A stretch of 64,000 nt of DNA from Candidatus Methanogaster sp. UBA203 (lineage in GTDB: Archaea > Halobacteriota > Methanosarcinia > Methanosarcinales > Methanogasteraceae): positions 2,596 through 66,595 of the forward strand of contig DASC01000135.1 in the NCBI GenBank assembly GCA_002503595.1, in the 5' to 3' direction. Each line of letters begins with the position of its first letter. Position 1 is the first letter of the stretch. The notes under the pieces are model-generated. The model saw only the letters and a program-made list of their open reading frames with translations. It was not told the origin of the DNA and searched no databases. The translations under genes and the position numbers were made by a program. Shown piece by piece: positions 1,713-20,144 of the stretch.

Positions 1713-1904
1713 ATGACGGGTAAGATCTGTATCATTATTGGCACACGCCCGGAGGTGATCAAGATGTCGCCTGTGGTGCGGGCGTGCGAGGGCTCGGGGG
1801 CGGAGTGGTTTATGGTTCATACCGGGCAGAGGTGTTCGCGTGATGTGGGCCGGGTGTTCTCTGGGGGGCTTGGACGACAGGGTTATGAGGACGTTAAGAT
1901 ATGA
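1713..1904 (+). pseudogene. 5' fragment of a WecB-like epimerase gene, copy 3
   Basis: MTGKICIIIGTRPEVIKMSPVVRACEGSGAEWFMVHTGQRCSRDVGRVFSGGLG. It is nearly identical in nucleotides to copy 1. Homology ends near 1875, and its stop overlaps the ATG (1901) of the next gene. Confidence 0.7.
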
Positions 1905-2809
1905 AGACGAGTGAACTATTGATAGCAGGTGGAGCCGGTTTTGTCGGCAGGAATCTTGTAAGGGTGCTTCAATCCAGTGATTACGAGATGGGAATGATAA
2001 CGGTTGTGGATAAAGACAGAAAGAATCTAGAGTACGTGAAGAAGTTTGGTGTGAAAGCGGTTCAGGCAGATATGGATGAAAAAGGAGATTGGTTTGACGA
2101 ATTCAACGGAAAAGAGATGGTCATCAACCTTGCAGCACAGATCTCTTCTCCTTCTTATGATGATTTCCACAGAAATAACGTCGTTTCTACGGAAAATATT
2201 ATCGAAGCCACCAGAGCAGCGGACATTGGTAGGATTATCCATTTCAGTTCTGCTGCGGTTCTCTCCATTCGAAAGGACGACTATGCCAAAAGTAAACTGG
2301 AAGGGGAAGAGATGGTTAAAAAGAGCGGGGTCGAATATTGCATATTACAGCCGTCTCTTATGTATGGTCCAACCGATGACAAAAACATAGGATACTTAAT
2401 CAATTTTGCCAAGAAACTCCCATGTTTCCCGATCCCGGGTCATGGGAAATGGCCCAGACAGCCGATCTACATCGACGACATCTGTTATCTCGTTATTTCG
2501 ATTATGGATAACTTCCCACACAATAAAGTTTACAGCGTCAATGGAAGGGAGGTTATCTACTTCAGGGATATGATAAAGATCGTTCTCAAGCAACTTGGAG
2601 GATTCAAGTTTAGAGTCTTCCTCCCCATCAGCTTGTTCAAGTTTCTCATGATGAGCTATCAACTACTGGCTGGAAGAACCCAGTTCACATCCGATCAGGT
2701 TGATTCCCTCACTGCTGAAGAGGTGTTTCCGAACTATGCATGGTGGGATGAGTTCGGTATTGATATCACATCCTTTGATGAAGGGGTTAGGAGGATGCTT
2801 GAACTATGA
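1901..2809 (+). CDS. NAD-dependent epimerase/dehydratase (extended SDR)
   Basis: 302 aa. It has the Rossmann motif GGAGFVGRNL and the catalytic YAKSK (YxxxK) motif. Confidence 0.8.
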   Translation: MKTSELLIAGGAGFVGRNLVRVLQSSDYEMGMITVVDKDRKNLEYVKKFGVKAVQADMDEKGDWFDEFNGKEMVINLAAQISSPSYDDFHRNNVVSTENIIEATRAADIGRIIHFSSAAVLSIRKDDYAKSKLEGEEMVKKSGVEYCILQPSLMYGPTDDKNIGYLINFAKKLPCFPIPGHGKWPRQPIYIDDICYLVISIMDNFPHNKVYSVNGREVIYFRDMIKIVLKQLGGFKFRVFLPISLFKFLMMSYQLLAGRTQFTSDQVDSLTAEEVFPNYAWWDEFGIDITSFDEGVRRMLEL

Positions 2810-3003
2810 TGGGGGAAAAGATACTTGCAGATTATGACAGGGAAGCGGACGTTCTTTGTATAAATTTTACCTATCCGCCCGAAGCAGTAGAACATAATGA
2901 AGATGAGAGGGGGCTCATCAGGAATTGTAATGAGCGTGAAGGTGTCGTGGGGATAACAGTGATTTCAGCGAGTGGATTTGCGGAGAGTAGTGACAGAGGT
3001 TAA
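2806..3003 (+). CDS. DUF2283-like small protein (antitoxin-like, orphan)
   Basis: 65 aa. ADYDREADVLCINF ... GVVGITVISAS fits the DUF2283 pattern. The start overlaps the upstream stop (ATGA). No DUF4258-type partner is present. Confidence 0.45.
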   Translation: MMGEKILADYDREADVLCINFTYPPEAVEHNEDERGLIRNCNEREGVVGITVISASGFAESSDRG

Positions 3004-3004
3004 A

Positions 3005-4393
3005 ATGATGAGTGATAATATCTCGGAGGTCATCCCGGTAAAAAACGAGGAAGCGAAGATTATGCAGTGCCTTGAAGCGGTCTTCTCTCAATCCCTCAAG
3101 CCGCATGAGGTGCTCGTGGTCGATGGACATTCGACTGATCGGACGGTGGAGCGGGCGAGGGAGTTTCCGGCCAGGGTGGTTTATGAGGATTATGGAACAG
3201 TTGGTGGAGCGCGGCAGGTCGGGGTTTTGAGTGCAGAGAGTGGGATTGTGGCTTTTACGGATGCTGATTGCGTTCCTGAGAAAAATTGGTTAGAAGATGT
3301 CGTAAAGGAATTTGATGAGGGTATTGTCGGTGTGGGGTGTGGGATAAAAAATGATGATGACCTGGTAGCTATATCAGTAGTAGTTCCGGTATACAATGGT
3401 GAGAAAACGATAAAGAAGACAATAGAAGCGTTGCTATCGCAAAAAACAGAAAAAAAATACGAAATTATCATTGTCGACGACGGTTCTACAGATAATACCC
3501 CCAACATTATTAAAAAATATCCCATAAAAACAATCACTCAAAAAAATGCAGGGCCCGCAGCAGCGAGAAATATCGGTTGGAAAGCCTCGTCGGGAAAGAT
3601 AGTAGCATTTACAGACAGCGACTGTGTCCCCATTCCGGATTGGATCGAAGCAATAAGTAAACACTTCAATGACCCCGCTATAGGAGGAGTTGGCGGCACA
3701 TATAAGATGGAAAATATAGGAAACATTCTTGCAACCTATATCGGAGAAGATATAAAATTTAGGCATGACCGACTTGGAAAGGAAATAGAAGCAGTAGGAA
3801 CGTTCTCTGTCGCATTTCGGAAGAATTTACTCGAACGGGTTGGTGGATTTGATGAAACATATAAAAAGGCTACCGCGGAGGACTTTGATTTATGTTTTGC
3901 AATACGTAAAACAGGGCATAAAATAATATACGAGCCAAATGCGATTGTGGGTCATTATCACAAGGAAAGCTTTTTAAAATATATAAAGAGTCAGTTCTGG
4001 TTTTCAGTTTGGAGAATATATTTATATGATAAATATAAATGTATGGCAAAAGGTGATCGGTACACGCCAATAACAACATTAATCCAAGTACCGGTAACAT
4101 TGTTATTTTTATTGAGTTTAGTATTGGGTGTTTTTATCGAAAAATTATTTATAATATCGATATTTCTTGTAGGTGTTCTTCTTATGTTAACTATTCCATT
4201 TATAAGCTATGAGATACGAAAGAATCCATTGATTGCGGTAATAGGGGTATTTATGCAGTTTATTAGAAACATCATCTGGGCAGTTGGTTTTGTCGGTGGG
4301 TTGGTTAATTTGTTTTATTTAAAGTTTGAAAAATGCAAAAAAAGAAGACGTGGTAAAGAACATGTTATTAAGCTGGTGGATAGTACAACATGA
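3005..4393 (+). CDS. Family-2 glycosyltransferase: a truncated GT-A N-terminal half fused in frame to a complete GT2 with C-terminal TM helices
   Basis: There are two successive GT2 motif sets: VIPVKNEE..VVDGHSTDRT..FTDADC, then VVVPVYNGE..IVDDGSTDNT..FTDSDC..EDFDLC. The hydrophobic tail has 3-4 helices. The ATG at 3005 is preferred because it follows the upstream stop at 3001-3003. Confidence 0.8.
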   Translation: MMSDNISEVIPVKNEEAKIMQCLEAVFSQSLKPHEVLVVDGHSTDRTVERAREFPARVVYEDYGTVGGARQVGVLSAESGIVAFTDADCVPEKNWLEDVVKEFDEGIVGVGCGIKNDDDLVAISVVVPVYNGEKTIKKTIEALLSQKTEKKYEIIIVDDGSTDNTPNIIKKYPIKTITQKNAGPAAARNIGWKASSGKIVAFTDSDCVPIPDWIEAISKHFNDPAIGGVGGTYKMENIGNILATYIGEDIKFRHDRLGKEIEAVGTFSVAFRKNLLERVGGFDETYKKATAEDFDLCFAIRKTGHKIIYEPNAIVGHYHKESFLKYIKSQFWFSVWRIYLYDKYKCMAKGDRYTPITTLIQVPVTLLFLLSLVLGVFIEKLFIISIFLVGVLLMLTIPFISYEIRKNPLIAVIGVFMQFIRNIIWAVGFVGGLVNLFYLKFEKCKKRRRGKEHVIKLVDSTT

Positions 4394-4462
4394 GACTATG
4401 AAAATTATGATGGGTATAAATTGGAGGTTTTTGGTGATGGTAAATTTTGGGAGTGGAGTGCA

Positions 4463-5587
4463 ATGAACATTTGCATGCTATCCTCTGAATTCCCCCCCGA
4501 TCTCGGCGGTATAAGTACGTACGTCCATAATTTATCAAAAAAATTGATAGAACGGGGGCATACTGTCACAGTTATCACGCGGGGGACATACAGAAAAACA
4601 TATCAGGAAAAGATAGATGGTATCTCTGTACATCGTGTGCGGTTCATACCATCATATCCTTCTCCATTCAAGTTACATGGATTGTTCGTGAATAAATCAT
4701 TTAAGTTATTGGAACCAGATTTTGACGTAGTACACGTACATGGAACACTCGTGCCGGTCATCCATACATCATTGCCAGTCATATTTACCTCACATGGTAC
4801 TTCCAATAAGGATATTGACAATATGCCGATGAAAAGTTTTCACTTTTATGTTGTTAGTCTTATGCGCAGGCAATTATTTAATGCAGAAAAAACGATTGTA
4901 GGAAGTGCAGATGTAATTACTTCGGTGTCACATTCGTGTGCAAAAGAACTGAAAAAAGACCATGTAGTAAATAAAAAAATTACAGTTGTGAATAATGGTG
5001 TAGATAGTAACTTTTTCATTCCCATTGAAAATAATAAAAAAGAAAATTATATATTATATACTGGGAGATTGGAGACAAGAAAAGGATTGATTGATTTCAT
5101 TGAAAGTGCGAAATACGTATGTCGAAAATATGTTGATATTAAGTTTATCTTAACTGGTAAAGGCACGATTAAAAATTATCTGGAGCGAAGAATTGATAGT
5201 TTCGGTTTGAAAAAAAACTTCTGCTTTACCGGGTTTGTGGATAGGTCAATGCTTCTTGAATACTATCAAAATGCAGCTATTTATGTTCTCCCATCATATT
5301 ATGAAGGACTGCCCACAACTTTGCTCGAAGCGATGTCATGCGGAATACCCTCAATCGCGACAAATGTAGAGGGGAGTTCTGAAGTGATAATCGATGGTGA
5401 AACAGGTTTGTTAGTTCCTCCGAAAGATCCTGAGAAATTAGCAGAAGCAATAATAATGTTATTAGAGAATAAGGTGTTACGAAACAGATTGAAGATGAAC
5501 GCAAGAAAATATATTGTAGCTACTCATGATTGGGAGATTATAACAGACAGAATAGAAAAAGTGTATGAAAAATGTGTAACTAAATAG
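4463..5587 (+). CDS. GT-B glycosyltransferase (GT4/GT1 family)
   Basis: N-terminal SSEFPPDLGGISTYVHNL. The C-terminal EX7E motif is EGLPTTLLEAMSCGIPSIATNVEGSSEVI. The ATG at 4463 is preferred over the track's upstream alternative start at 4421. Confidence 0.8.
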   Translation: MNICMLSSEFPPDLGGISTYVHNLSKKLIERGHTVTVITRGTYRKTYQEKIDGISVHRVRFIPSYPSPFKLHGLFVNKSFKLLEPDFDVVHVHGTLVPVIHTSLPVIFTSHGTSNKDIDNMPMKSFHFYVVSLMRRQLFNAEKTIVGSADVITSVSHSCAKELKKDHVVNKKITVVNNGVDSNFFIPIENNKKENYILYTGRLETRKGLIDFIESAKYVCRKYVDIKFILTGKGTIKNYLERRIDSFGLKKNFCFTGFVDRSMLLEYYQNAAIYVLPSYYEGLPTTLLEAMSCGIPSIATNVEGSSEVIIDGETGLLVPPKDPEKLAEAIIMLLENKVLRNRLKMNARKYIVATHDWEIITDRIEKVYEKCVTK

Positions 5588-5648
5588 TAGTAAAAATATA
5601 ACATGAGCCGGATAATTTTGTCGCAAAATCTAAAAGAAGATCGTATCG

Positions 5649-7562
5649 ATGAGCATGTCCGGGTGGCGTAAAGTAGGTGATAAGATGGAATTCGCGAAGT
5701 TTGGTGGCGAGAACAGAATCATTAAAATCGTATCCACCATCGCTTTTATTTTTATCGCAATATCTTTAGATATAATTGCGAAAACTTCTCCAACTGTTGG
5801 CTACGAAGTATCAATTTATAACGCCTACCCCTCCTACTTTTGGTTTTTAGTTATAGCTAGTATTGCTTGTGGCATTGGGATACTGTTGTACCAGGCTTTT
5901 GCTCAAGAAAAATCCCGATGGTGGGTTCTTGGACTTGTGATAATTATCTTAGTCAACACCATTTTTCTGCTCATGCCTGAGTTTAGAGGGTATTCCTTCT
6001 ATGCGCGAGGGGAGGACACACTCACACACGCCGGATACATCAGAGATATTCTAAATACTGGGCATGTAGGTGAAAGCAATTACTATCCAATCGAGCACAT
6101 ATTGGGTACAAACTTAATCCAAGTATCTGGAATATCGCTAGAAGATGTTTCTGCTCTATTTTTCGTCCTTTTTTCTGGAATGTATATTATTACTATATAT
6201 CCTTTGGCCAAAAGCACTAGTAAGCACTCGGGTCAAGTTCTATTAATAGTTGCTTTCGCCTCACCTTTAATATACAGTTTTTTTCATGTAAACATTTCTC
6301 CCAATATTTTTTCTTTGTTTATGCTACCATGTTTGTTGTATTTTTATCATAAAAGAGAGTTAATCCCATCAAATCGCATGGAAAATACTATTGCGGTGCT
6401 TATATTGGCGTTTTGCATTGTTTTTTTCCATGCCGTTACCACACTCTTCACCATAATTGTTTTTTTTGTATTTGGGCTTGCTTATGCTCTGTACTCCAAT
6501 TTTATTGTCCGCAGACTATCTGAGCATAGGCAATATGGAATTGTCGGTAAGAATTTTCTTAGAATAACTTTTATCCTGTTTATAGCTTTTTTCATGTGGT
6601 ATTTCTCGTACTCATCTATCTGCAATAGTTTCAGAAGAGTTGCCGACTGGTTAATCTATCAGATTGGCACTCCTTTGTTCGATGCACAACTTGAAACATT
6701 GAGAGAAACTGGACCTACATGGTCTCAAACTTTTGAACTTTTTGTGAATAGGTATGGCGCTATTTTTTTATTGTTGCTACTTTCGAGTATATGTTGTATA
6801 TATGTGATTAGGAAAAGTTTGTCAAAAGCACATAATATAGGACCCATGATGTTTACATACGCAATTCAATTCACGATTGCTCTTTTCATTAGTGTTATAA
6901 TGCTATTTGGTTATTTTTTCGAATATAATCCCGTCAGAGTTTTTAGGCTTCCTTTACTAATGGGTACAATTCTTAGTGGGTTGGTGGTTTATGATTTCGT
7001 TAGCGGATATACTAGGAAGAAGTCTAATAAGAGAAACAAGTTGCGCCAAAGGTTATTCATAATAGTAATTTGGATGACCATAATGGTCATGGTTACGCTA
7101 AGTTTTGGGAGTGTTTATAATTCACCGAGAGTGTATCTGCCAAATTCTCAGACCACCTCAATGGACCTAGTTGGCACAGAATGGCTGGATAAATCGAAAA
7201 GTCCTGATATTCGCATAATTGTTAGTCGATGGTCAGCACATTCTCTGCACCGATTCGAAGATTATAATTTTGGAATAGATTCCTCCCCTACCGTCAAAGT
7301 AGGAATAATCCACGAATATCTTCCTTCGCACTTTGGTTATGGTGGGAATAGCTCAGTTGTAGAATCTTTAGGTTTTCGAGATATGTATGTAGTCATCTTC
7401 CAAGTAGATAAAGTAATAACGATGTTTGTCCCAGAGAATGTTGGATCAAATATAGATCAGTGGACGGAAGAAGATTTTGCCAAGCTAAAAGTCGATCCTA
7501 CTGCAGTACATGTCTATGCTAATGGTGAATTTGATGTGTGGGGGGTATATGGCGAATTTTGA
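5649..7562 (+). CDS. Large polytopic membrane protein with a soluble C-terminal domain (glycan polymerase or GT-C-like role inferred from context only)
   Basis: 637 aa. More than 10 hydrophobic segments are followed by a hydrophilic tail of about 170 aa. No AglB WWDYG motif was seen. It lies within the glycosyltransferase cluster. Confidence 0.6.
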   Translation: MSMSGWRKVGDKMEFAKFGGENRIIKIVSTIAFIFIAISLDIIAKTSPTVGYEVSIYNAYPSYFWFLVIASIACGIGILLYQAFAQEKSRWWVLGLVIIILVNTIFLLMPEFRGYSFYARGEDTLTHAGYIRDILNTGHVGESNYYPIEHILGTNLIQVSGISLEDVSALFFVLFSGMYIITIYPLAKSTSKHSGQVLLIVAFASPLIYSFFHVNISPNIFSLFMLPCLLYFYHKRELIPSNRMENTIAVLILAFCIVFFHAVTTLFTIIVFFVFGLAYALYSNFIVRRLSEHRQYGIVGKNFLRITFILFIAFFMWYFSYSSICNSFRRVADWLIYQIGTPLFDAQLETLRETGPTWSQTFELFVNRYGAIFLLLLLSSICCIYVIRKSLSKAHNIGPMMFTYAIQFTIALFISVIMLFGYFFEYNPVRVFRLPLLMGTILSGLVVYDFVSGYTRKKSNKRNKLRQRLFIIVIWMTIMVMVTLSFGSVYNSPRVYLPNSQTTSMDLVGTEWLDKSKSPDIRIIVSRWSAHSLHRFEDYNFGIDSSPTVKVGIIHEYLPSHFGYGGNSSVVESLGFRDMYVVIFQVDKVITMFVPENVGSNIDQWTEEDFAKLKVDPTAVHVYANGEFDVWGVYGEF

Positions 7563-7573
7563 TTAACCTATTC

Positions 7574-9019
7574 GTACGTGTTTAGCCGCTCAGCCTCGCC
7601 CTCATCATCTGGAGACTGTTGAATCCCTGCTGTGCCCACGTTGCCAGCACTGTCATGATCCGCTCGTGAATTGACGTCCCTTTTCTATTACGCAGTGTTC
7701 CCACGATCTTCCGCTGGACGACATGCTCAGCGATTTGAGCCCTTTCTGCTCTGTTATTGGTCGACTCCACGCCTGGATGAGTGACAAACGTGAACCAGTA
7801 ATCAAAGCCATTTTCAATCTTGCCGATGAGCTTTTCCACCTTCTCGCTTCCGTATTCTCTCTTGAGCCATCGTTTGAGCGTTGCTTCCGCATTATGTGAC
7901 AGCTTCTCCCGAGTTTCGGGAGGAGGATCATTCTCCAGCGCGTCAATCAGTTTTTCATGGAGTCTCCCCGAGTGCTCTGTGTAAAGGAACCGCCTCCGCA
8001 ATCTTCTCGGTGAGATCCTTTGATTCTCGAAGTAGATGTGCCCAGCAACGCTGGATACGGTTTGTAAATTTGGCGTACGGTTTCCAGCCGTCACACACGA
8101 TCATTCCCTTGAATCTCCTTGTCAGAACCTCTACCAGGACTTTTGTGCCCCGACTCTTCCGAATCACGACAAAAGTCTCTGCGGGGGTGGTGAATGCCCA
8201 TATCCAGTGTTTCTTTCCCTGAACTCCGATTGAAGTTTCGTCCACATGCAGAATCGGAGCGTTACGAACTCGTTCCAGAATTGCGTCATATTCCGATTGA
8301 ACCGCATCAGCAGCACGGCGAGTGAGATCGAGTATCGTAGCAGGACTGATGTCCAATCCATAGTGCCGTATCAGCGCGTTCCGGATCTTCCGGTGTGGCA
8401 GCCTATCTTCATATTTCAGCAGTGCCGCCTGAGCAATCGTGTTGTTACCGAATATACCTTCTTTTGGACAACTCGAATCGGTTGCAACGACTTCTTTCTG
8501 GCAGTGTGGGCAGGTGTAATGTGCAATATTGTATTCGGTGACGATAACAGGCTGTGGTTCCGGAATCTCCTCGATAACCTTCGTTTCCACGCTGAACGGC
8601 TCACCAAGCTCAGTTCCAAAGTACAGGACACCGATCTTTCGTGACCTCCACCTGTCTATCAGGCTTTGCAGGAGGTCTCGTCACACCCTTATGTCCTTTC
8701 TTCTGCCCCGGCTTCTTCCACCGCCTTTATCTGGATCTTTTTTGCGCTTGCCGCCACGCTTCAGACTTGGTGGGGTATGTGCGTTCTCATACATAGCCAG
8801 TTGGCAACGAGCTCCTTTATGCATACCTTAAGCGACTCATTCTCATGCTTAAGTTGGTCAATCACGTCTCGAAGTTGTTTGATGATCTCGTCCTTGTCCA
8901 TCGTCCTCTTAGAAGACTATTACAGTAACAATATAGAAGTTTTGTGGTCGAGGATGGGTTTTAGATCGATCTGGAAGAACAGTGTGATGGGTGGTTATGT
9001 GGGGGAGCTAAACACATAC
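7574..9019 (-). mobile_element. IS66-family insertion sequence (single-ORF, ISBst12-like size), decayed
   Basis: Imperfect terminal inverted repeats are gtacgtgtttagc (7574-7586) and gctaaacacatac (9007-9019). It encloses a broken IS66-type transposase. It is a GC-rich element inside AT-rich flanks. No clear target duplication was found. Confidence 0.65.
7582..8901 (-). pseudogene. IS66-family transposase, disrupted by at least three frame changes
   Basis: The pieces are MDKDEIIKQLRD.. (from 8901), YENAHTPPSLKRGGKRKK..GHKGVTRPPAKPD (another frame), ORF 7955-8590 (CPHCQKE..HVDETS..DGWKPY..QRCWAHLLR) and ORF 7582-8094 (ESTNNRAERA..). Confidence 0.75.
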
Positions 9020-9094
9020 CAGTAAGTTAAATACGACGGAATCCTATTAATTAAAAAGAAATTAGATGGACTTGTAGACGAGTTTGGTGATAAA

Positions 9095-10075
9095 ATGGTA
9101 AATAAAAATCTATTCGTGATAGGCAGTGAGCATCTAAGGAAATGGGAACTCAAGTCATTTCTATGCGGGTTTATCTTTTTTAGCATATCTAGGAGGAACT
9201 TATGTGTAGATAATTTAAGATACGTAATTGCAAAGATGCGCAATAAGGGGGTAGATTACACTAAAGTAAAAGTAAATGATAATTTAATGTATATAAATTT
9301 TAAGGATAATGGAATCTCTAAGGAACTTTATATCCACCGGAAAAGAGAGCATTTTTCAACTGAATTCATAAAAGAAATTATTAGCGAAGACGAAATCATA
9401 ATTGATATAGGAGCTAATATTGGATACTATGCCTTATTAGAGTCTCAATTGGCAAATAAGGGAATGGTGTATGGTGTAGAGCCCATACCTTCAAATATGA
9501 ATTTATTGAATAGAAATATAGAATTGAATAATCGCAAGAATTTTTCTTCTTTTCAATGTGCTATAAGTGATAAAAATGGTGAAGCGAAAATGTATGTGTA
9601 TGACAAATGTAATTGGTGTTCCTTCACAAAAGATCCAGGCGGTAATATAATAGATGAAATCGAAGTTCAAACAATGACGTTAGATAAGTTTGTGGAGTCT
9701 TGTGTCTGTCAAGATCCTACGTTCATTCGAATGGATTCTGAAGGACATGAATATCAGATAATCAAAGGTGCAGCTAACATTTTTAAAAAAAATAATCCAC
9801 TAAAATTATGTATAGAATTGCACCCCCACTTGATGCCAAGGAAAAACATGGAAGAACTGATTAACAATCTAAAACAAAGTGGTTTCAAAGTGATGGCAAT
9901 ATTTTTAGATTCAACCCCCTATAACTATAAAAATATTAATACAATAAATAGATTGTGTAGAGCAATGAAAATTCCTGAATTTGGGTTTGCAGGCAATAGT
10001 TACGAAGATATATACAAACTATTAAAAGAGAGATGCTACGCACCCATTGTTTTTTTTGAAAGAGGAAAAGCATAA
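9095..10075 (+). CDS. FkbM-family SAM-dependent methyltransferase
   Basis: IIDIGANIGYYAL (SAM motif I), VYGVEP and FQCAISDKNGEAKMYV are present. The true start may be the ATG at 9236. The gene is very AT-rich. Confidence 0.7.
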   Translation: MVNKNLFVIGSEHLRKWELKSFLCGFIFFSISRRNLCVDNLRYVIAKMRNKGVDYTKVKVNDNLMYINFKDNGISKELYIHRKREHFSTEFIKEIISEDEIIIDIGANIGYYALLESQLANKGMVYGVEPIPSNMNLLNRNIELNNRKNFSSFQCAISDKNGEAKMYVYDKCNWCSFTKDPGGNIIDEIEVQTMTLDKFVESCVCQDPTFIRMDSEGHEYQIIKGAANIFKKNNPLKLCIELHPHLMPRKNMEELINNLKQSGFKVMAIFLDSTPYNYKNINTINRLCRAMKIPEFGFAGNSYEDIYKLLKERCYAPIVFFERGKA

Positions 10076-10094: not shown

Positions 10095-11345
10095 TCAAAC
10101 CCACCCATTCCTCCACACCATCACCCCCACGTACACGCTCCCAACCACATTCCCCACCACCCACGCATACCCCACCCCAATAACCCCAAATATAGTCATA
10201 AACACATACCCAAGCCCAACCACTAGCCCACAGATCACCCCACTCAGAACCACAATCCCACGCACATCCTTCTGAATCCTCTTGATCGCAAAATAAACAT
10301 AATTCACCCCGATAAACAAACTTGCTACAACCATCACCCGCAGCACCCCCAACCCACCTCCGGCATAATCCTCCCCGATCACTCCAAGCGCTACGCCACC
10401 GCAAACATACAGCACAGCCGCAGCCGGAACCAGCAGCGAAAAGATAACAATCAGCGACTTTACAACGGTTCTTTTCAATGCCGCACCATGGCTGCCCTCA
10501 ACAAAGAGCGATATGCTGATCGCATTCGGTATCATGAAGAGCAGAGACACTACTGCAAACGCGATATAATAATACGCCGCCTGCTCGGCCCCGAGCATGT
10601 TCAGAACCATAATCGGTATTATCATATTCGGAGCCGCCATGAAGATGCCCACAAGATAATTACCGGCAGAGAAATGAAATGCATCGTTCAGAAAGCCACG
10701 ATCAACCACAAGCATAGGTCTGATCCCTAAACTTATTAGAAAAACAACTGCAATCGAAAGCGCAAACAGAAACGATATTCCGACTGCGCTGAAGATGCCG
10801 ATTGCTCCGAGTGTGGTGAGGGGGATTAAGAAGATGACTCTTGAGCCGACGACAATGCTCTGAAAAAACTGAAACTCAGCTTTTCGTATTGCGACAAACG
10901 AGATTCCAGTTAACGCGGTCACAGAACTTGCTGCAAGGAAGATTAAAAAGAGTGATGCGTTCTGCGGCGATTTTAGAAGATCAAGTTCTGGCGAAACTGT
11001 ATCCACACCTGCGATGAATATCGTACCGAGTAGAACCGCGAAAAATGTTGTTACGAGTGCAGATGTACTGAATGTCCTACTCTTATCATTTGTCGGGAAG
11101 AATCTGATAACCGAGAAGTCCAAACCTAATCTGGAGAGTGAGACGAGCAGAGCCATTAAGGAGATGAGCGCAGCTGCGATGCCAAAGTCTTCCTTCAGAT
11201 ATAACTTTGCCGCAAGCATCCAGAAGATGAAGCCGAAGCCTGCGCTTGATATGTGTGTGAGCACGATGAATAGAGAGTTTCTGAGGAGATGGTCATGGAA
11301 GCAGTGGTTCATCTCTGCTCTGGTTTTTGGCATTCTGATTTTCAT
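10095..11345 (-). CDS. Polysaccharide/oligosaccharide flippase (Wzx-like, MOP superfamily)
   Basis: 416 aa, hydrophobic throughout with about 12-14 helices. Its position in the glycan cluster fits a flippase. Confidence 0.7.
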   Translation of the reverse strand: MKIRMPKTRAEMNHCFHDHLLRNSLFIVLTHISSAGFGFIFWMLAAKLYLKEDFGIAAALISLMALLVSLSRLGLDFSVIRFFPTNDKSRTFSTSALVTTFFAVLLGTIFIAGVDTVSPELDLLKSPQNASLFLIFLAASSVTALTGISFVAIRKAEFQFFQSIVVGSRVIFLIPLTTLGAIGIFSAVGISFLFALSIAVVFLISLGIRPMLVVDRGFLNDAFHFSAGNYLVGIFMAAPNMIIPIMVLNMLGAEQAAYYYIAFAVVSLLFMIPNAISISLFVEGSHGAALKRTVVKSLIVIFSLLVPAAAVLYVCGGVALGVIGEDYAGGGLGVLRVMVVASLFIGVNYVYFAIKRIQKDVRGIVVLSGVICGLVVGLGYVFMTIFGVIGVGYAWVVGNVVGSVYVGVMVWRNGWV

Positions 11346-11369: not shown

Positions 11370-11639
11370 TCACGGCTTCCAAACTATGAGCCACTCAACC
11401 CGCTCAAAATATTTGTCGTTGGTTGTGATGTTTTTGATCCTGTGTTTTTTCATTATTGCGAAATGCATAGCATCATTCGATAACGAACCATATTTTTTAG
11501 AATACTTCAAAGCAATTCCAAATACCTCCTTGGTCATTTCAACAATTTTTAAATTTTCAATCGCGTTAATGTTCAGTACAACATCCCATGCTTTGTTCAG
11601 TTCTCCCATAATTGCCCAATTCTTCTTCAAATACTTCAT
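11370..11639 (-). pseudogene. PIN-domain toxin fragment (C-terminal two thirds)
   Basis: SLSNDAMHFAIMKKHRIKNITTNDKYFERV is the C-terminal PIN signature. The N-terminal Asp-containing strand is missing, and an upstream in-frame stop lies close to the IS1-like element. Confidence 0.45.
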
Positions 11640-11768
11640 TGTACAGTGTGTATTTACCCCTATTAATGTGTTCTAAGAAACTATTGTGTGGTTCAGCATA
11701 TTCCCAGTGATCAAAAATTTGGTAATGTCCTAATCCAAGATAGTTAATTGGAAATAGAAAAATTCGTG

Positions 11769-12850
11769 TCATGTCCACAGGTGATCTGCCAATCCCTCTA
11801 ACATTGCAGGGGAACTTCTTCTTTTGAACCCGTTTATGAAATTCCAATAGAATTGAAACAGTTGGAGCGAACATTTCAGCATCCACCTCCGTTTTGAGAA
11901 ACATTTTGTCTTCCGTACCAACCTACCAATCCTTTCCCTGAGTATCCCGTTGTAGTTCTCGACGTCGGTGGTTTCGTACATGTTCAATATCGTGTGGAAT
12001 TTTTGGATAGAAATTTGCAAAACCACCACTGGCCGCCAGTTCCCTAAACCCAACAATAGTGATTTACCACAACTTATTGAGCAAGTACGTGGTTTCTATA
12101 TCGCCGGGATCCGGGTTACCGTATATTGTCCTTTTCTCCTTGCGGACGACTCTTCCATTCTCCCTGATCTTTACAAGCTGCCCATAATCGATACAGGTAT
12201 CCACATAATAATCCGGTAAAACATAAGTGTAATCGTCGTTTCCATCGGTGAATACCTCCATTTTAGTCTGCGGAGACGGCTGCTCCGTTCTTTCAGATAG
12301 CTTCTCTATCATTCTTCCACAAGTCTCCTGGGTCCATTTCCCAACTGAAAAAGCCACAAAGAAGTATGTGCTTCACTTTATGCAGGTGTAGATCCATGCA
12401 TCACCCTCTTCAGTCCAATTCGGGCTGCCGGGCTCAATATTTTTTTGTTTTTTTGATAAAGCTCCACAGTTCATCGCATTCGAATGGGGTAAGCCCGAGG
12501 GTCTTTATGAGATACTCATTCATCTCTGCCGCATGTTCAGCCATATCCTCCAGCAATCTACCTATCGTGTCCCTATGGTGACCTGTGATCCGCTCGATAC
12601 TCCGTAACCCGTTCTTCTCTACCAGATGCTTGCAAATATTGATTATTTCACTTTCGGGCAGTTGTTTCCGGTATAACGGAGTGCCCTTCGTTTCCATGAA
12701 ATAGGTTTCGCAATGCTTGCAGTAATACCTCTGATGGCCGGTACTCTTGTACTTACCGCTTTTGATAATGTCTTTCCCAGCTTCTTTTCGGTAATAACGA
12801 CACCGGGGGTTCTGACAAACAACATCGATTTTTCCTCTTGGTCGCGCCAT
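11769..12850 (-). pseudogene. IS1-family transposase (InsA/InsB-like), decayed
   Basis: The N-terminal Zn-finger/HTH ORF (CQNPRCRYY..YYCKHCETYF) ends in an A7-C-A7 run (12440-12454), the typical IS1 -1 slip site. The continuation carries an in-frame TGA and further frame breaks. The DDE-region motifs DGNDDY and VENYNGILRERIGRLVRKTKCFSK are present. Confidence 0.65.
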
Positions 12851-12876
12851 GGTGTTCACCAAGAGAATGGTTCCGT

Positions 12877-13971
12877 TGCATACTATAATAGACCTGTTGC
12901 GAAACAACACCCACTACACGAATTATACGCCCCAACCCTCCATACGACTCCCTCGATTTAGCAGCGTTTGAGGTGGTAATTCCACAATCCACAGGATATT
13001 AACATAACTTTATCATCAAACTCCTCTTTTTTGTTGCGAAACTTATCAGAAACTATCCTGAACCGCTTAACACCCCCAATAGCGTGCTCCACGAGGACTC
13101 TGAAACCACTGACAATCCGGTTCCACGCCTTCGCATCGTCGGTCAATTCTTTTCCTTTCGGCTTTTTCTTCGACATCATGACGACCGCATCGGTATAATC
13201 CTTTTCAACGCCAAGAAATCCCAAATCCATCCACGAAACCACATTTCTTGCAAATATTCCATACGGCGGTGGAAATTTCATCCTTGAACATCCGATAATC
13301 ATGCTTTTTACCCTCCATAGTTGGGCTTAAATAGCCAATTCGTCTTTTCTTGTTGGAGATGATTATATTCTTCCGGGTATGCATCTTCTTCTTGCCGGAG
13401 TAGTTTTTCTTCTGCTTCTCGTTGTCTTTTGGTCTTTGGATTGGTCTCTCGGTGCCGTCGATGAACAGATCCCTTACGTCGGGAAATATCGCAAACAACT
13501 CTTCTACAGTCCTTATTTTTCGCTTTGGTAACGTTGTCTCCCTACTGAGCGCTTTCTCCAATGCCAGTGTTAATTTATGGATATTACGGTTTGCATTCGA
13601 TCTGTTAAGATCAAATACGAATCCTAAGATATCAAAAGTTGGATAACACTTGAAATAGAAGAGCGTGAAGAATAACTTCTCCGCGTCACTTTCTAAATTT
13701 CCTATTCTTCCGCCACCAGGCTTCCTTTCTCTACCCCCAAGTTTAACTCCTGTTTCATACCTAATCCACGCTTCATTTTGAAGTTCTTGTCCGAAACTAC
13801 CCGTCGGTTTGTTAAATTCGGATGCAGATAATCCAGTCATGGCTTTCAGCAGTCTATCGTCATTTAACGCTCGATCGAAGTTTAGCATATTTCATGAGAT
13901 ATATCTCACTTAATTTAAAGCTTTTTGGTTGAAGTGGACGCTAATTGGCAACAAGTCTAATAAACTATCGT
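12877..13971 (-). mobile_element. IS5-family (DDE_Tnp_4 / Harbinger-like) insertion sequence with a frameshifted transposase (12958-13888)
   Basis: Imperfect inverted repeats are ataatagacctgttgc (12885-12900) and gcaacaagtctaataa (13948-13963). Transposase motifs seen are LFIDGTERPIQRP, NYSGKKKMHTRKN, MDLGFLGVEKDY and RVLVEHAIGGVKRFRI. One frame change lies near 13205-13302. Confidence 0.6.
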
Positions 13972-13982
13972 AAATTAGGACA

Positions 13983-14426
13983 CTACCAAAAATCTTCGCT
14001 CAAGATCTCAACCAAAAACTGATTTTCCTCTGGAAGCCTGCATCTACGCAGATGCGCGATTGTGGCAAGCGAAACCGTGAACACCGACAGAACAATTAGT
14101 GTCGGTATCAACCGAATCCCAAAAGGCGTGTAATTCAGTGCCAGTCCGAGCAACGGCACAACTGCGATGCTCAACCCAAAACTAAGTGCGATCCGCTCAA
14201 TCCCATCCAGGTCATCCTGCCCCGGAAACAGTGCCGCAATCAACGAATATCCGGGAAGGAAAAGCACCAACAAAAGACCAAGTAAAAGTCTCACTGACGT
14301 TTCGTTCAGTGGTGAGACCAGAACAAACGGTATGCATAAAAACGTGAGTAAGATCACAAGTGCAAGGTCTTTTTGAAAGTTTAGCATAGTCTGCATCTTT
14401 TTTTCACCTTGTTTCATTGGTATCAA
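13983..14426 (-). pseudogene. DUF1616-family membrane protein, N-terminal TM part only (likely truncated by the adjacent IS)
   Basis: LLGLLLVLFLPGYSLIAALFPGQDDLDGIERIALSFGLSIAVVPLLGLALNYTPFGIRL is the DUF1616 signature. At 147 aa it lacks the usual large extracellular domain. The ORF ends 12 nt from the IS5-like terminus. Confidence 0.55.
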
Positions 14427-14599
14427 CGTTGAAGTCGATGATGTATTCGGTTTTGTTTCTTATCGTGATACCTTCTTAATCCTTTGCATGCGCTTCCAAG
14501 TTGCATAGTAAATCTGACGGGGTTGGTCATTGTCGTGGAGCCAAAGAACATTCCAACCACAAAAAACCCGCCCCAGTGTCATTTACCATTTTTACCGTA

Positions 14600-17500
14600 T
14601 CACGGACTGATTTTATACACCAGTGTGTCATACGGATGTAATTCTATAAGTGCGATATACATTTTTCCATCTTCTGCACTCTGTGTAGATGTAATGTTCG
14701 TTACTAGTTCTTTGACTTCCACGCTAGTTCCATCAAAACCAAGTTTTGACAGGCCCACAGATAACACGCCACTTTCTGTCATGGAACTGCGGCTGGCAAC
14801 GGTATAGTATAAACACTCACTTAGATCACCATATCGTTCAAATTTTATATCGGGATTATCGCACGCCGCATACGGTATCGGCTCCCAGCCAGCAGCCGAT
14901 ATCTCTCTGATTATTGGAATGCATTTTTTGAATAGGTCGCGATCTCTTTCGTAGAATGTATCGTTATTCCAATATCGATTGTTTCCGTATATTTCTTCTG
15001 GTGACACAATACCGAAGGTTGGGAACATACCATAGAACATCTGCTCATCCATGTAATTTTCTACCTCATTATGAGTGATTGGGTCATCTCCATATTGTTC
15101 CCAATGTAATAAATTGGAATTTGTTTTTTGATAACTCATTGTGCGACGTAGCGACATATCACTATCACTTCTTTTTATATGCCAGACTTCACCGCCTAAT
15201 ACGTCAATTAGATGTTCATAATAAGAGTATGCGTTCGGGAATATGTTCGCATTGACAAGTTTGTCCATATTGGTCATGTTTTTACGTATCGATGCAAGAT
15301 ATTCATATTGAGATAATGTGCCCAACAACACAGGTTGCTTGGTATTATAACTGAATACTAGTGGATAATCGGTGTATTCCCAATGTTCTCTTCTATAGTT
15401 TTCAATTTCTGGCCAGCACCAATTACTGTGGAGTGAGTCCACGTAAAATCCACTAGATGGATAATCGCTTGCATTATATGTCGATTCAAAACTATGATTT
15501 TCAACTAAATTGATATCACTGTCACTTTCATGCAATTCAACATCATCAAACCAGAATGTGCCATACCCACTATAGATGTTAGCATATACACGTACATACG
15601 CGGTATCCGTGGTTGTTGTGAACGTTGCAGTTTTTTCTGTCCAGTTGGTTGTTCCGAAACCGAAGTCCAAATTTTTCTGTGCTATCCATGTTCCATTGCT
15701 GTCGTACTCTGCTGCACGCACACAAGGAGAATAAGTACCGCCACAGTTCAGTGTCTTTCCCCAAACTGAGAAATTGTATTTTGTCGATGGTGTAACCGAT
15801 ATGTGATCGGTTATTAAACTACCAGACATTACATCAAATGTTCCCAGTATCTCAATTTTGCCTGCGTAATTGCCACTGTGTGCAATGGTATCTATCGAGA
15901 GATTTGAACCAAATGACCAGTGATATGCATAAAAGCCGCTCTCGTTCGATCGATCGTATTCAGCATAACTGATCTCACATCGGTTTGGAGATGGAATGTC
16001 TGGATCGGGATTTTCAGGATAATTCTGTTGCCATGTACCATACTCATGCCAGCGGTAGGGGTCATCCAAATGGTGATTTTTATTCTTATCATACGGTGCG
16101 GAGTTCAACACTGCTTCTGCTGCAAACTTTGTTATTACCACGTCTCTCCACATTCCAATACCGTTGTTGTAATCATCCATCAGTGCTACAATCTTCTCGT
16201 CGTAACTCGGTTCTGTGGAATTATCTCCAAAACTCCGCCACCAACCCCATGGTTCAGTGTATTGCATCGGATATATTCCATGCTGATGATCATAAACACG
16301 TCTTGATATGGGATGATAATGCGAGTCATCAAACGCAAAACCAAAATCACTCGCATTCGGTATATCTGATGTGTCACGCCGCACCCACAACCCCTCCCAC
16401 TCATTCCTCTTCACAAAAAACTCCGGATACAGTTCATAATACTTCTTCGCGACCGCCCGAAACCCCCACTCTGGCCCGTCCACCTTGTACACAATAAACG
16501 TAAAGTTGGCATGTCCTGCCCCAATCTTATCAGTACAGTTCGCAAGCCCGAAGTCATACTCGATCGAATATCCTCCTGCACCAGTATCATACCCGATCCG
16601 GTAGATCCTCGGCACATCCATAGGAACAGCGAGACTCAAGCCCTGCGCATCTTCACCGACAAACGTGAACGAATATGTGTTCTGTGTCCGCATTTCCCCG
16701 ATCTTGTACACATTCTCATACCGCACCCCAGATCCAATCGCCCTGCTCTCCCTGATATAATCGCCCCACTGCCATCCAGTGGCGTCCACAGGCAGAACAT
16801 ATTGCACCTGAATCGCCCGGTCCACGCCTCTCAGATCCAGCACATCGCCATGCACCTCAATATACCGGTCTCTCGGTATGTAATCGAATCTGAATGCAAT
16901 ATCCGAACTGGTCACGTACTGCGTGATGCTACCATCATAGTTCTTCTCAACCGCACTCACAAGCGGGATCTTCCCGGTCCCACACATTCCAAGCGTCACA
17001 TCATCGACCCAGAACGTGCCGTAACTCTCCCAGATATTCGCATACACATAGAGTTTGCTGACATCAGAACTCGTGGTAAAACTGGTTTTCTTCTCCTCCC
17101 AGTCAGAATCCCTACCAAAAACTAAGTTGTGCTGTGTTATCCATCCGCCACTACCGTTAAGCTCCACCACACGGACTGTGGGCGAATAACTCCCATCAAC
17201 ACCGCTACTCTTACCCCGCGCTGAAAAGGTGTACACTGTACCCGGTTTCGCATCTATCAGGTCGGATTTCGGATAGCCGCTTTGCATATCTCCGGTTCCC
17301 GGGACATTGATCCGTATCGATCCCGGGCTATCATGTCCTTCTGACGCATCATAGACCACAGTCCCGGCGCGACTTACAAACGTCCAGTTCAGTGGCACAT
17401 CACCACTCACAGTCTCGAACCCGGGATTTGCAATAAGGTTCTCTGAGATGGTTGAAGATAATTCCCTGAAGGAAAAGCCACCCGGCACGGACAGCATAGG

Positions 17501-18562
17501 CATCTCGACATCATCTATCGATACGCCGCTGACCGCTCCGCCCTCTGCAAGACTAAATTCGAGACCATCATACGCACGCACACTGAGTTCACCAGCATCC
17601 CCCGCCGCCGTCTCGCCCGTCTGATTGACCCCTGTCTCGCTCACATTCCCACCCACATCAACCGTCCGCACACCGATCTCGTAACAACTACCGGAATCAA
17701 GCCCGGTCGCATTGTAGAACGAATCCGGTGTGACTCCCATGTACGTCCCGTTCAGGTGAACCGTCACATAAGCGAATCGTACATCAGCAGGGTTTGTCCA
17801 TGTCCAGTTGATCCACGTCCTGCCCGCGGTATACCCAAGATCACTGATGCCCGGAAGCGGTGCTTCATACACTTCCAGCGCCACATCCTTGACCTGGAAC
17901 GTGCCGCTGCATTCCCATGTGTTCATAGACACATAGAATTCACTGACATTGGGGCTCGTGGTGAAGGTGATCTCCTTTTCCACCCAGCCATAACATCTGC
18001 TGAAACTCAAGTTGTGCTCTGTTATCTTTCTGCCACTACCGTCAACTTCCATCGCGGTGACGAGCGGCTCATAAGTCCCATTAAGATCGCTGCTGATGCC
18101 CCGCGCAGAAAGGATGTATGGTGTATCAGGTTCCGCCACCACCATATAGACGCCGGATGGAGCCACTCCACCCCCGCCCGCGCCGTCACTTCCGTCCACT
18201 GCATCCGGTTCATGCCATGCCGGCTCATGTTTCGGATCTCCGCTCTTTGCGCCGCCGGTTCTGGAAAAGCCTGCTTGTGCCGTGTCAGTGTTATCCGCTC
18301 CTTTGGCACCTTCAGCAGCATCAGAAACCGCACCCCCAGCGCGGCTTGCGGTTACGTTAACCCCGTGACCTGCAGCAAGACCCCCCGACCCTGCAGCAGA
18401 TAACTCGTTATCTGTATGTGAAATCTGTTCGTTGGATGTGAATGCATCCGCAAAAGTTCCGGGTGTTAATGTGAATAGCAAAAGCGATATAGTCGCGATT
18501 GCCAGCAAATACCCGCTGTACTGGTAGTTATATGTGTTTTTTGGAAGTGCAGTGCTATACAT
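14600..18562 (-). CDS. Giant secreted or cell-surface protein: signal anchor, G/A-rich linker, FN3-like module, three CBM4/9-like (galactose-binding-like) repeats and an uncharacterised core
   Basis: The 1320-aa ORF is intact. The N-terminal hydrophobic anchor is YLLAIATISLLLFTL. A repeated module carries GxY(E/S)P.V...E.(D/N)(G/S)(S/N)G..I..(H/K)NL.F......W.EK...FTT and ends in GTF(W/Q)(V/F)(D/K)DV.L. The FN3-like segment is TWINWTWTNP..YEIGVRTVDVGGN. Confidence 0.8.
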   Translation of the reverse strand: MYSTALPKNTYNYQYSGYLLAIATISLLLFTLTPGTFADAFTSNEQISHTDNELSAAGSGGLAAGHGVNVTASRAGGAVSDAAEGAKGADNTDTAQAGFSRTGGAKSGDPKHEPAWHEPDAVDGSDGAGGGGVAPSGVYMVVAEPDTPYILSARGISSDLNGTYEPLVTAMEVDGSGRKITEHNLSFSRCYGWVEKEITFTTSPNVSEFYVSMNTWECSGTFQVKDVALEVYEAPLPGISDLGYTAGRTWINWTWTNPADVRFAYVTVHLNGTYMGVTPDSFYNATGLDSGSCYEIGVRTVDVGGNVSETGVNQTGETAAGDAGELSVRAYDGLEFSLAEGGAVSGVSIDDVEMPMLSVPGGFSFRELSSTISENLIANPGFETVSGDVPLNWTFVSRAGTVVYDASEGHDSPGSIRINVPGTGDMQSGYPKSDLIDAKPGTVYTFSARGKSSGVDGSYSPTVRVVELNGSGGWITQHNLVFGRDSDWEEKKTSFTTSSDVSKLYVYANIWESYGTFWVDDVTLGMCGTGKIPLVSAVEKNYDGSITQYVTSSDIAFRFDYIPRDRYIEVHGDVLDLRGVDRAIQVQYVLPVDATGWQWGDYIRESRAIGSGVRYENVYKIGEMRTQNTYSFTFVGEDAQGLSLAVPMDVPRIYRIGYDTGAGGYSIEYDFGLANCTDKIGAGHANFTFIVYKVDGPEWGFRAVAKKYYELYPEFFVKRNEWEGLWVRRDTSDIPNASDFGFAFDDSHYHPISRRVYDHQHGIYPMQYTEPWGWWRSFGDNSTEPSYDEKIVALMDDYNNGIGMWRDVVITKFAAEAVLNSAPYDKNKNHHLDDPYRWHEYGTWQQNYPENPDPDIPSPNRCEISYAEYDRSNESGFYAYHWSFGSNLSIDTIAHSGNYAGKIEILGTFDVMSGSLITDHISVTPSTKYNFSVWGKTLNCGGTYSPCVRAAEYDSNGTWIAQKNLDFGFGTTNWTEKTATFTTTTDTAYVRVYANIYSGYGTFWFDDVELHESDSDINLVENHSFESTYNASDYPSSGFYVDSLHSNWCWPEIENYRREHWEYTDYPLVFSYNTKQPVLLGTLSQYEYLASIRKNMTNMDKLVNANIFPNAYSYYEHLIDVLGGEVWHIKRSDSDMSLRRTMSYQKTNSNLLHWEQYGDDPITHNEVENYMDEQMFYGMFPTFGIVSPEEIYGNNRYWNNDTFYERDRDLFKKCIPIIREISAAGWEPIPYAACDNPDIKFERYGDLSECLYYTVASRSSMTESGVLSVGLSKLGFDGTSVEVKELVTNITSTQSAEDGKMYIALIELHPYDTLVYKISP

Positions 18563-18981
18563 GTCAGTAGCCTCCGTATCTAATCATCATGAGATGCGGC
18601 AAGGGAAAATGCCCCCACTCCCCCCCACACTTATCTCATGATAATAATGATTATGACATTCATAGTATAAAAAGTTAACGGTCACGCGTCATGTCAGCTA
18701 AAACCCCGTGTCGCGTCAGATAAAGCCCCGACCGTCGTCAGGTAGACGCGTCGCTACCGGTTTTGACGTGCCAGACATCATCCCGATTCAGGTTGTGGCA
18801 GGCAACAGACGCAATCCTGCACAGACACGATCCCGCCGTCTGCCGAGATGGACGATCTGAAAAGAGGCAGCTATCAAGAGCGAACGTGCGGTCAAGCCGC
18901 TGCAAGCGCATCACCTGGATCTGGTGTGTGGTTTGAAGATCAGGGATCGAGGATAAACCTCAAAAAAGCGTAACTACTCAT

Positions 18982-19595: not shown

Positions 19596-19885
19596 TCTTC
19601 AAACCCACCCCTCCTCCCTCCACACCATCACCCCAACGCACACGCACACGCACCCAACCCCATTCGCAACTACCCACGCATATCCAACCCCAACGACCCC
19701 AAACATCGTCATGAACAGATACCCCAATCCAACCAATGACACAAAAATCACCCCGTTCAGAACCACAATCCCCTTAACATCCTTCTGCACCCACTTGATC
19801 GCAAAATAAACATAATTCACCCCGACAAATAAACTTGCAACCACCATCGCCCGCAGCACTTCCACCCCGCCAGCAGCATAATCCG
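19596..19885 (-). pseudogene. Diverged 3' fragment of a second Wzx-type flippase gene
   Basis: VLRAMVVASLFVGVNYVYFAIKWVQKDVKGIVVLNGVI..GVGYAWVV aligns with the C-terminus of the intact flippase (VLRVMVVASLFIGVNYVYFAIKRIQKDVRGIVVLSGVI..GVGYAWVV). Homology stops at a repeat-derived sequence, gcgcactctgcggt. Confidence 0.75.
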
Positions 19886-20072
19886 CGCCCCTTCGCGCAC
19901 TCTGCGGTTATATTCTGTGTTTGGTTACAGTAATGCCTGCCCTTCGGGCATGGCATCGATAGAATCGAATCCTTCTGGGATTCTATTATGCCTCATGTCC
20001 TGGATAGTTCCTGCATAGTGAAGTCCCACGATAGTGGTTTAGGTACCTGAGTAGTTACAAAAAAGCTTAACA

Positions 20073-20144
20073 AGCCTCGGGCGGGAATTGAACCCGCGAC
20101 CTCGTCCTTACCAAGGACGCGCTATACCGCTAAGCCACCGAGGC
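20073..20144 (-). tRNA. tRNA-Thr (anticodon GGU)
   Basis: Hand-folded cloverleaf: acceptor GCCTCGG/CCGAGGC, anticodon stem CGTCC/GGACG with loop TTGGTAA, T-arm GCGGG-TTCAATT-CCCGC, discriminator T. No encoded CCA. Confidence 0.85.

Follow-up and report, generated by a model that had tools for sequence, protein, structure and literature searches.

A 1320-residue archaeal protein with carbohydrate-binding modules nested in a predicted GH36-like glycosidase core, encoded at the edge of a glycan-biosynthesis cluster

Glycosidases of family GH36, including FpGalNase of Flavonifractor plautii (9ayu, 8x1b) and AgaA of Geobacillus (4fnr), are built on the three-domain plan of clan GH-D, namely an N-terminal β-sandwich, a (β/α)8-like barrel and a C-terminal β-sandwich, and space their nucleophile and acid/base residues 60-70 positions apart. 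In the GH66 enzyme CITase, which like the GH31 cycloalternan-forming enzyme is a transglycosidase with a retaining mechanism, the inserted module is a carbohydrate-binding module (CBM) of family CBM35. Glycanases encoded at the exopolysaccharide (EPS) loci of bacteria include ExoK, which acts on succinoglycan, PslG, the PelA hydrolase domain and BcsZ, and in Methanosarcina the disaggregatase, which carries the Pfam domains Disaggr_repeat/Disaggr_assoc, degrades methanochondroitin. Here, an open reading frame (ORF) encoding a 1320-residue protein is described from a 64,000-nucleotide stretch of Candidatus Methanogaster sp. UBA203 DNA (contig DASC01000135.1, positions 2,596 to 66,595), referred to below as the window, which is archaeal in gene content, carrying RpoA', CdhD and FttA. 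We estimate at roughly one in two the probability that this protein is an exported retaining α-glycosidase or transglycosidase with a GH-D-like fold that processes the polysaccharide of the adjacent biosynthesis cluster, its catalysis, α-specificity and substrate all being predictions from the sequence, the structural model and gene position.

The structure was predicted with AlphaFold2 (AF2) using the family alignment, giving a predicted local distance difference test score (pLDDT) of 93.4 and a predicted template modelling score (pTM) of 0.89 for residues 522-1320, and values of 89.8 and 0.81, respectively, for residues 121-1320. Along the chain, the model places a β-sandwich, an alternating β/α region broken by an all-β module (M3) and a terminal β-sandwich, and the core so modelled has the three-domain plan of GH36 and clan GH-D. 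When the model was compared with the Protein Data Bank (PDB) using Foldseek, the best whole-fold matches were GH36 enzymes, with FpGalNase (9ayu/9awt/8x1b, E 6e-11) reaching template modelling (TM) scores of 0.42 when normalised by query and 0.49 when normalised by target, the latter increasing to 0.53 with the complete N-terminal domain; L. brevis 3mi6 and Geobacillus AgaA (4fn*) also matched over the whole fold. Structures of GH31 ranked after GH36 (5oht, TM 0.39; 4kwu/5i0d), while those of GH101 and GH66 had E-values like those of GH36 with low TM scores. For the long model, Cry, Vip and reelin structures ranked at the top with TM ~0.1, matches that probably reflect the repeated β-sandwiches. 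An earlier note on this DNA, made without database searches, could assign the core to no family; this holds for sequence models, whereas the modelled fold points to a glycosidase of GH36-like type. The note had further held that its proposal of a carbohydrate-active enzyme would fall if structure or profile searches showed only adhesin-like β-sandwich repeats and no catalytic fold, and the AF2 and Foldseek analyses gave a fold of glycoside hydrolase type.

Conservation was read from family alignments of 49, 70 and 88 diverse sequences. R702 (in WGFR), D1042, W1226 and E1242 are invariant throughout; D1120 is invariant in the two smaller alignments and conserved in at least 90% of the sequences in the largest, and D739 (in DFGF), Y768, N1106, E1125, R1140, R1208 and R1243 are conserved at 90% or above. 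In the model, the first barrel strand beyond M3 is strand 918-924, and D1042 is located close to its C-terminal end, with D1120 and E1125 following 78 and 83 residues later. The position of D1042 and the aromatic-x-Asp pattern around it recall the β4 nucleophile of GH31-, GH36- and GH13-type barrels. D1042 and D1120 are candidate catalytic residues. The protein resembles GH36 in its domain plan and may do so in having a conserved Asp near a barrel strand end, with the second conserved Asp 78 residues on, but differs in its sequence (~8% identity), in the lack of a KxD-type nucleophile motif, in whose place stands G-x-Y-x-D-S, and in the two CBMs nested within its core.

The ORF runs uninterrupted from ATG to stop over 1320 codons on the reverse strand, a length whose chance of being free of stop codons in random sequence is, by our own arithmetic, (61/64)^1320 ~ 1e-28, and the same protein occurs with 100% identity on five public metagenomic contigs. 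The ratio of nonsynonymous to synonymous substitution rates (dN/dS), measured against a homologue that is 79% identical (P0003), amounts to 0.23 for the whole gene and to 0.09-0.15 for the N-terminal domain and barrel, indicating that purifying selection is strongest on these domains and not on the CBMs. The argument that the survival of an intact ORF among pseudogenes (a truncated DUF1616 gene, split DDE_Tnp_4 and IS66 transposase genes, and IS1, PIN and flippase fragments) reflects selection holds because of these low ratios. Inserted CBMs are absent from most of the family, which identifies the core itself as the conserved functional unit.

All three CBM-like repeats proposed from the translation, the first of them partial, were recovered. 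M2 is matched by Pfam CBM_4_9 at residues 375-511 (53.4 bits, cutoff 25.9) and M3 by CBM_4_9_1 at residues 917-1010 (31.1 bits, cutoff 27), and M1 is a truncated paralogue modelled as a β-sandwich (pLDDT 83-90), considered partial since its alignment with M2 (z = 38) covers just the C-terminal two-thirds of the module, ~90 residues. Smith-Waterman scores against shuffled sequences (z = 38, 21 and 36 for the three pairs) show the modules to be mutually homologous, confirming them as paralogues at the sequence level, and Foldseek matched them to CBM16, CBM4-2 and CBM22 structures with TM up to 0.75. At the M2 site, the segment from GGFSFRE to VEKNxDGSITQ is 4-5 residues long in three close archaeal homologues (P0011, P0012 and P0019), in which the two parts of the N-terminal sandwich, Na (pLDDT ~95) and Nb, are contiguous, versus 162 residues in the window protein; across homologues this site holds zero, one or two CBM copies, the two in tandem. 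At the M3 site, the segment from NPDPDxPxPN to DGxYxDS spans 7-33 residues in distant homologues versus 169 in the window protein. By these alignments, both modules are clean insertions, M2 in the N-terminal β-sandwich and M3 in the barrel, so that the one insertion recognised in the earlier note was real and was accompanied by another. The conserved core therefore starts near residue 325 and not near 560, as had been proposed. GH66 CITase (3wnk, 3wnn, 5x7g; E 3.6e-10) likewise has a module inserted within its catalytic barrel, however its TM scores are 0.18-0.23, its domain arrangement differs, there is no sequence relationship, and the window modules are of CBM4/9 type with the second one in the N-terminal domain. 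The FN3-like module suggested between M1 and the core was not substantiated; the fn3 match is below threshold in Pfam (13.7 bits versus a cutoff of 25) and no confident FN3 fold was obtained by AF2 over residues 233-320 (pLDDT 45-62), for which reasons the segment is treated as an unconfirmed β-rich module.

A profile search of 1.84 billion representative sequences placed at least 1351 clusters at 50% identity in the family at E <= 1e-30. The same search returned 9119 matches at E <= 1e-3, however the profile was untrimmed and retained the N-terminal CBM, so that this count is inflated by CBM-only matches and the former is relied on. With one genome per GTDB species, 238 family loci were confirmed, of which the 80 listed are nearly all from metagenome-assembled genomes (MAGs). 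The matches listed belong to Planctomycetota, Verrucomicrobiota, Armatimonadota, Sumerlaeota, Acidobacteriota and a small number of further groups; the nearest named genomes among them are archaeal, comprising Ca. Methanogaster sp. E20ANME2 (57%), of the anaerobic methanotrophic archaea (ANME) group ANME-2c, and Methanosarcinaceae and Methanosarcinales MAGs (56%). Such a protein had been thought unusual for a methanogen-type archaeon, and the family is indeed chiefly bacterial, but homologues are not rare. Source annotations are "hypothetical protein", "carbohydrate binding domain-containing protein" and, for P0041, "dockerin type I domain-containing protein"; none of the family members examined bears a functional name, and a search of the literature turned up no specific match, either to a newly described glycoside hydrolase family or to ANME glycosidases. 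Homologues are common, as the earlier note had allowed they might be, but uncharacterised.

Dockerin domains (PF00404) were found in four homologues (P0026, P0027, P0028 and P0041) and cohesin domains (PF00963) in two (P0026 and P0040), hinting, from domain content, that these members may be anchored to cell-surface cohesin scaffolds; no dockerin was found in the window protein by Pfam. ANME genomes use dockerin and cohesin modules extensively on surface proteins (PMC9012536). One of these five sequences is labelled Candidatus Methylomirabilis, possibly through inter-domain transfer or mis-binning.

Gene position was compared across seven archaeal loci, those of the window, P0028, P0018, P0003, P0007 and P0019 and that of the Ca. 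Methanogaster E20ANME2 genome, and in all seven the gene is located at the edge of a polysaccharide-biosynthesis cluster. In the six other than the window the homologue directly abuts the cluster, which always contains GT4 glycosyltransferase genes, usually several; a DUF2206 membrane protein of 684-847 residues is encoded in five (L005, L090, L091, L092 and L007), a Wzx-like flippase in three and a GT2 glycosyltransferase in three, with CE4 deacetylase, pyruvyltransferase and methyltransferase genes present variously. In the window, the gene ends the glycan cluster with ~3 kb of insertion sequence (IS) debris intervening before the flippase. Where other clusters have DUF2206, the window encodes a 637-residue DUF6541 membrane protein (5649-7562, + strand); one may replace the other as a Wzy-like polymerase or GT-C-like enzyme. 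A link with DUF1616 genes, which the earlier note had suggested checking, was rejected, as it appears in one of the seven loci, that of the window, where the copy is truncated.

Adjacency to the cluster across relatives, a trait of EPS-locus glycanases, is found in all seven archaeal loci. As in the bacterial systems, a secreted glycosidase-fold protein would be encoded at a polysaccharide locus, a likeness that we regard as a functional analogy; the bacterial enzymes are of unrelated folds and families (GH16, GH39, GH166 and GH8). The Methanosarcina disaggregatase offers a further parallel, being a surface enzyme of the Methanosarcinales whose presumed target is the matrix polysaccharide of the organism itself, however it belongs to another fold class, and identity with it was rejected as no Disaggr domains were found in the window protein by Pfam.

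In the proposed mechanism, the signal sequence would direct export, with a flexible G/A-rich tether, the truncated CBM and a β-rich spacer behind it, and the CBMs would hold the enzyme on the polysaccharide while the barrel, working by retaining double displacement, cleaves or transfers α-glycosidic bonds. D1042, in G-x-Y-x-D-S at the C-terminal strand end, would act as nucleophile and either D1120 or E1125 as acid/base. The most likely substrate would be the product of the adjacent Wzx/GT4/GT2 cluster, an exopolysaccharide or surface glycan that the enzyme may trim, release or size in the manner of locus-encoded glycanases in bacterial EPS systems. GT4 enzymes are retaining and typically make α-linkages, which match the α-specificity of GH27/31/36/66/101-type barrels. 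One target suggested in the earlier note, EPS or surface glycan of the organism itself, agrees with the cluster-adjacent position of the gene in all seven archaeal loci, and it is for this reason that we infer an own-polysaccharide substrate.

Several observations weigh against this interpretation. The similarity to GH36 structures is moderate (TM 0.42-0.53, root-mean-square deviation 8-9 Å, 8% identity), and, if the strands are counted, D1120 may lie one strand beyond the acid/base of GH36. Searches of the full protein with Pfam and NCBIfam found the CBMs alone above cutoff and left the core uncovered, Pfam placed no model over the core in 49 diverse family members, and phmmer and family-profile hmmsearch against PDB sequences returned CBM chains only. 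The one sequence trace that speaks for GH36 is a weak match to Melibiase_C (E ~0.004) on the C-terminal sandwich in three of these 49 members. Comparison of the family alignment with the GH31 enzyme YihQ of E. coli using hhalign, as a single sequence and as a 19-sequence alignment, gave a probability of 0.3%, a weak negative since the YihQ alignment, built from a dedicated homologue search, is shallow (64-87% identity). As the modelled fold agrees with GH36 and clan GH-D and no sequence membership in either was found for the core or the 49 members (Pfam, NCBIfam, PDB profile), the protein is termed GH36-like and not GH36, with these resources being incomplete proxies for the CAZy families by which "unclassified" would be judged. 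Finally, the two bacterial members inspected are located outside EPS loci. The locus of one (P0058, L087) includes GH106-like, Collagen_bind_2 and FGE-sulfatase-type genes, which suggests a degradative setting in bacteria, possibly on a sulfated glycan, unlike the biosynthetic setting in archaea, and the other has unrelated neighbours; the general role of the family may therefore be degradative.

It is in this light that a degradative enzyme directed at foreign polysaccharide should be considered, acting on environmental material or on a partner's matrix, such as the α-linked hexosamine polymer Pel, for nutrient release or for space and contact within the aggregate. The family is overwhelmingly bacterial and falls mainly in the polysaccharide-degrading Planctomycetota, Verrucomicrobiota and Armatimonadota, one bacterial member lies beside GH106 and FGE-sulfatase genes, and the best structural match is an α-galactosaminidase. 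In addition, some archaeal homologues carry the dockerin or cohesin modules that ANME use for surface assemblies (PMC9012536), and the pel operon is conserved among the sulfate reducers that partner ANME-2 (PMC10553843). However, in all seven archaeal loci the gene lies at the edge of the archaeon's own glycan cluster and no sugar uptake or catabolic genes were found beside the gene in the window, making this explanation somewhat unlikely for the window protein. A biosynthetic or remodelling transglycosidase that branches, cyclises, cross-links or attaches the polymer, for example to the surface (S-)layer, would account for the obligate position of the gene in archaeal biosynthetic loci and for the Foldseek matches to GH66 CITase, with its CBM inserted in the barrel, and the GH31 cycloalternan-forming enzyme. 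The TM scores to these two are low (0.18-0.36) and nothing in the sequence separates transfer from hydrolysis; we consider this role quite unlikely.

The three CBMs and the long tether could serve a non-catalytic surface lectin or adhesin that binds matrix polysaccharide, with the barrel as a pseudo-enzyme scaffold, and the lack of any glycoside hydrolase sequence signature in Pfam and PDB profile searches leaves catalysis to be argued from the model and alignments. This is very doubtful given the invariant or near-invariant acidic and basic barrel residues across 49-88 members, the concentration of purifying selection on the N-terminal domain and barrel and not on the CBMs, and the absence of any inserted CBM from most members; an adhesin-only protein was rejected as the best explanation, as the barrel is the conserved unit. 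An exported α-glycosidase or transglycosidase acting on the cluster's own polymer remains the preferred interpretation.

Divergence between the window gene and the P0003 gene (L090:156-4124) is strongly uneven along its length. Over codons 1-693, synonymous divergence (dS) is 0.18-0.31 and amino acid identity 80-94%, versus 0.65-1.30 and 60-83% over codons 694-1320, and the GC content drops from ~0.55 to 0.36 in the 5' to 3' direction in both genes alike. The 3' half of the window gene encodes the candidate catalytic residues and adjoins the low-GC variable glycan cluster. This pattern suggests, as read from the two sequences, either recombination or co-diversification with the glycan cluster.

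The features of the gene and its surroundings are collected in Table 1. A hydropathy scan identified a single N-terminal hydrophobic segment at residues ~15-38, followed by TFA|DA, and the G/A-rich linker described after it in the earlier note was found at residues ~41-135, with pLDDT below 50 over its end (residues 121-136). The protein contains 25 N-X-S/T sequons versus 10.9 expected from its composition; together with the hydrophobic segment this excess fits an exported archaeal glycoprotein, and the protein is probably N-glycosylated judging by its sequons. Upstream, the TATA-box/B recognition element (BRE)-like AACTTTTTATA may be the promoter of the gene.

Table 1. Features of the 1320-residue protein gene and neighbouring genes in the window (positions in the 64,000-nucleotide stretch)
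Feature	Position	Strand	Basis or remark
Whole ORF, 1320 residues and stop codon	14600..18562	-	Sequence
TATA/BRE-like AACTTTTTATA, candidate promoter	18666..18676	-	~105 nt upstream of ATG; read from sequence
GGAGG motif	18571-18575	-	8 nt before ATG
Residues 1-40, predicted signal peptide or signal anchor	18443..18562	-	Hydropathy scan
Residues 41-135, G/A/S/D-rich low-complexity linker	18158..18442	-	Sequence; modelled part pLDDT <50
Residues 136-232, M1, N-terminally truncated CBM4/9-like module	17867..18157	-	M2 alignment and AF2
Residues 233-324, β-rich module, FN3-like but unconfirmed	17591..17866	-	Pfam, AF2
Residues 325-372, Na, first strands of N-terminal β-sandwich, motif DGLxF...GGFSFRE	17447..17590	-	Family conservation
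Residues 373-526, M2, full CBM4/9 module inside N-terminal domain	16985..17446	-	Pfam and homologue comparison
Residues 527-693, Nb, rest of N-terminal β-sandwich	16484..16984	-	AF2; dN/dS 0.105
Residues 694-875, first part of predicted α/β barrel, with R702, D739, Y768	15938..16483	-	AF2, alignments
Residues 876-1014, M3, CBM4/9-like module in barrel loop	15521..15937	-	Pfam and homologue comparison
Residues 1015-1231, second part of predicted barrel, with D1042, D1120, E1125	14870..15520	-	AF2, alignments
D1042 codon, motif G-F-Y-V-D-S	15437-15439	-	Alignments
D1120 codon, motif L-I-D-V-L-G-G-E	15203-15205	-	Alignments
E1125 codon, motif L-I-D-V-L-G-G-E	15188-15190	-	Alignments
Residues 1232-1320, predicted C-terminal β-sandwich, with E1242, R1243	14603..14869	-	AF2
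Truncated DUF1616 gene, immediately downstream	13983..14426	-	Profile positions 1-130 of 307
IS debris between the 1320-residue protein gene and flippase	11370..13888	-	Split DDE_Tnp_4, IS1 fragment, truncated PIN gene
Wzx-like flippase (Polysacc_synt)	10095..11345	-	Downstream neighbour conserved in homologous loci; 69% amino acid identity to L090 flippase
Epimerase, GT2, GT4, DUF6541, FkbM methyltransferase, split IS66	1901..10075	+	Rest of glycan cluster

IS remnants occupy two areas of the window, at 7582-8590 and within the debris listed in Table 1. The IS66 gene is split into ORFs of 211 and 170 residues and the DDE_Tnp_4 transposase over two frames into ORFs of 227 and 114 residues, while the PIN gene is truncated to profile positions 52-119. 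Upstream of the 1320-residue protein gene, a 289-nt segment at 19601-19889 (- strand; ORF 19599-19865) shares 74% identity with the Wzx-like flippase gene of L090, the locus of the P0003 gene, at the 3' end of that gene. By this match the segment is a flippase fragment without its gene, left as another pseudogene or as the scar of a rearrangement. The segment at 14324-14446, covering the start of the DUF1616 ORF and intergenic DNA, is 74% identical to L090:4233-4358, the spacer between the P0003 gene and the flippase, so L090 may likewise contain either the 5' remnant of DUF1616 or a spacer that is conserved. A tRNA-Thr(GGT) gene (20073-20144, - strand) separates the IS-rich glycan-cluster side (1 to ~20 kb, GC 0.35-0.51) from a side with housekeeping genes encoding a HAD hydrolase, PdxS, a CobB/Q-like protein, PheT, RpoA' and CdhD (GC ~0.42-0.56), and this tRNA gene may mark the boundary of a variable island formed by the glycan region.

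What distinguishes this protein is the size of its unannotated family, its doubly nested CBMs and its strict association with glycan loci in Methanosarcinales and ANME-type archaea. CBMs have been cleanly gained and lost (0, 1 or 2 copies) at two defined loop sites, a natural case of domain insertion into an enzyme core that could guide enzyme engineering. A tentative possibility is that the protein is the founding member of an unrecognised glycoside hydrolase family, with a GH-D-like fold and more than 1000 clusters at 50% identity, whose archaeal branch is the dedicated matrix-polysaccharide enzyme of ANME-2 and Methanosarcinales aggregates; in that event, the substrate-facing 3' half might diversify with the adjacent variable glycan cluster, and the substrate might be an α-linked, possibly partly deacetylated hexosamine polymer of the archaeon or its partner. 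The matrix of Methanosarcinales and ANME-type aggregates is believed to play a part in syntrophy (PMC10553843, PMC9012536). Should the family prove inactive, this would be one more surface carbohydrate-binding protein. If active, it would constitute a new glycoside hydrolase family with a GH-D-like fold, widespread in bacteria of the Planctomycetota-Verrucomicrobiota-Chlamydiota (PVC) group and Armatimonadota, and would provide a first enzyme with which to approach the extracellular polysaccharide made by Methanosarcinales and ANME-type archaea.

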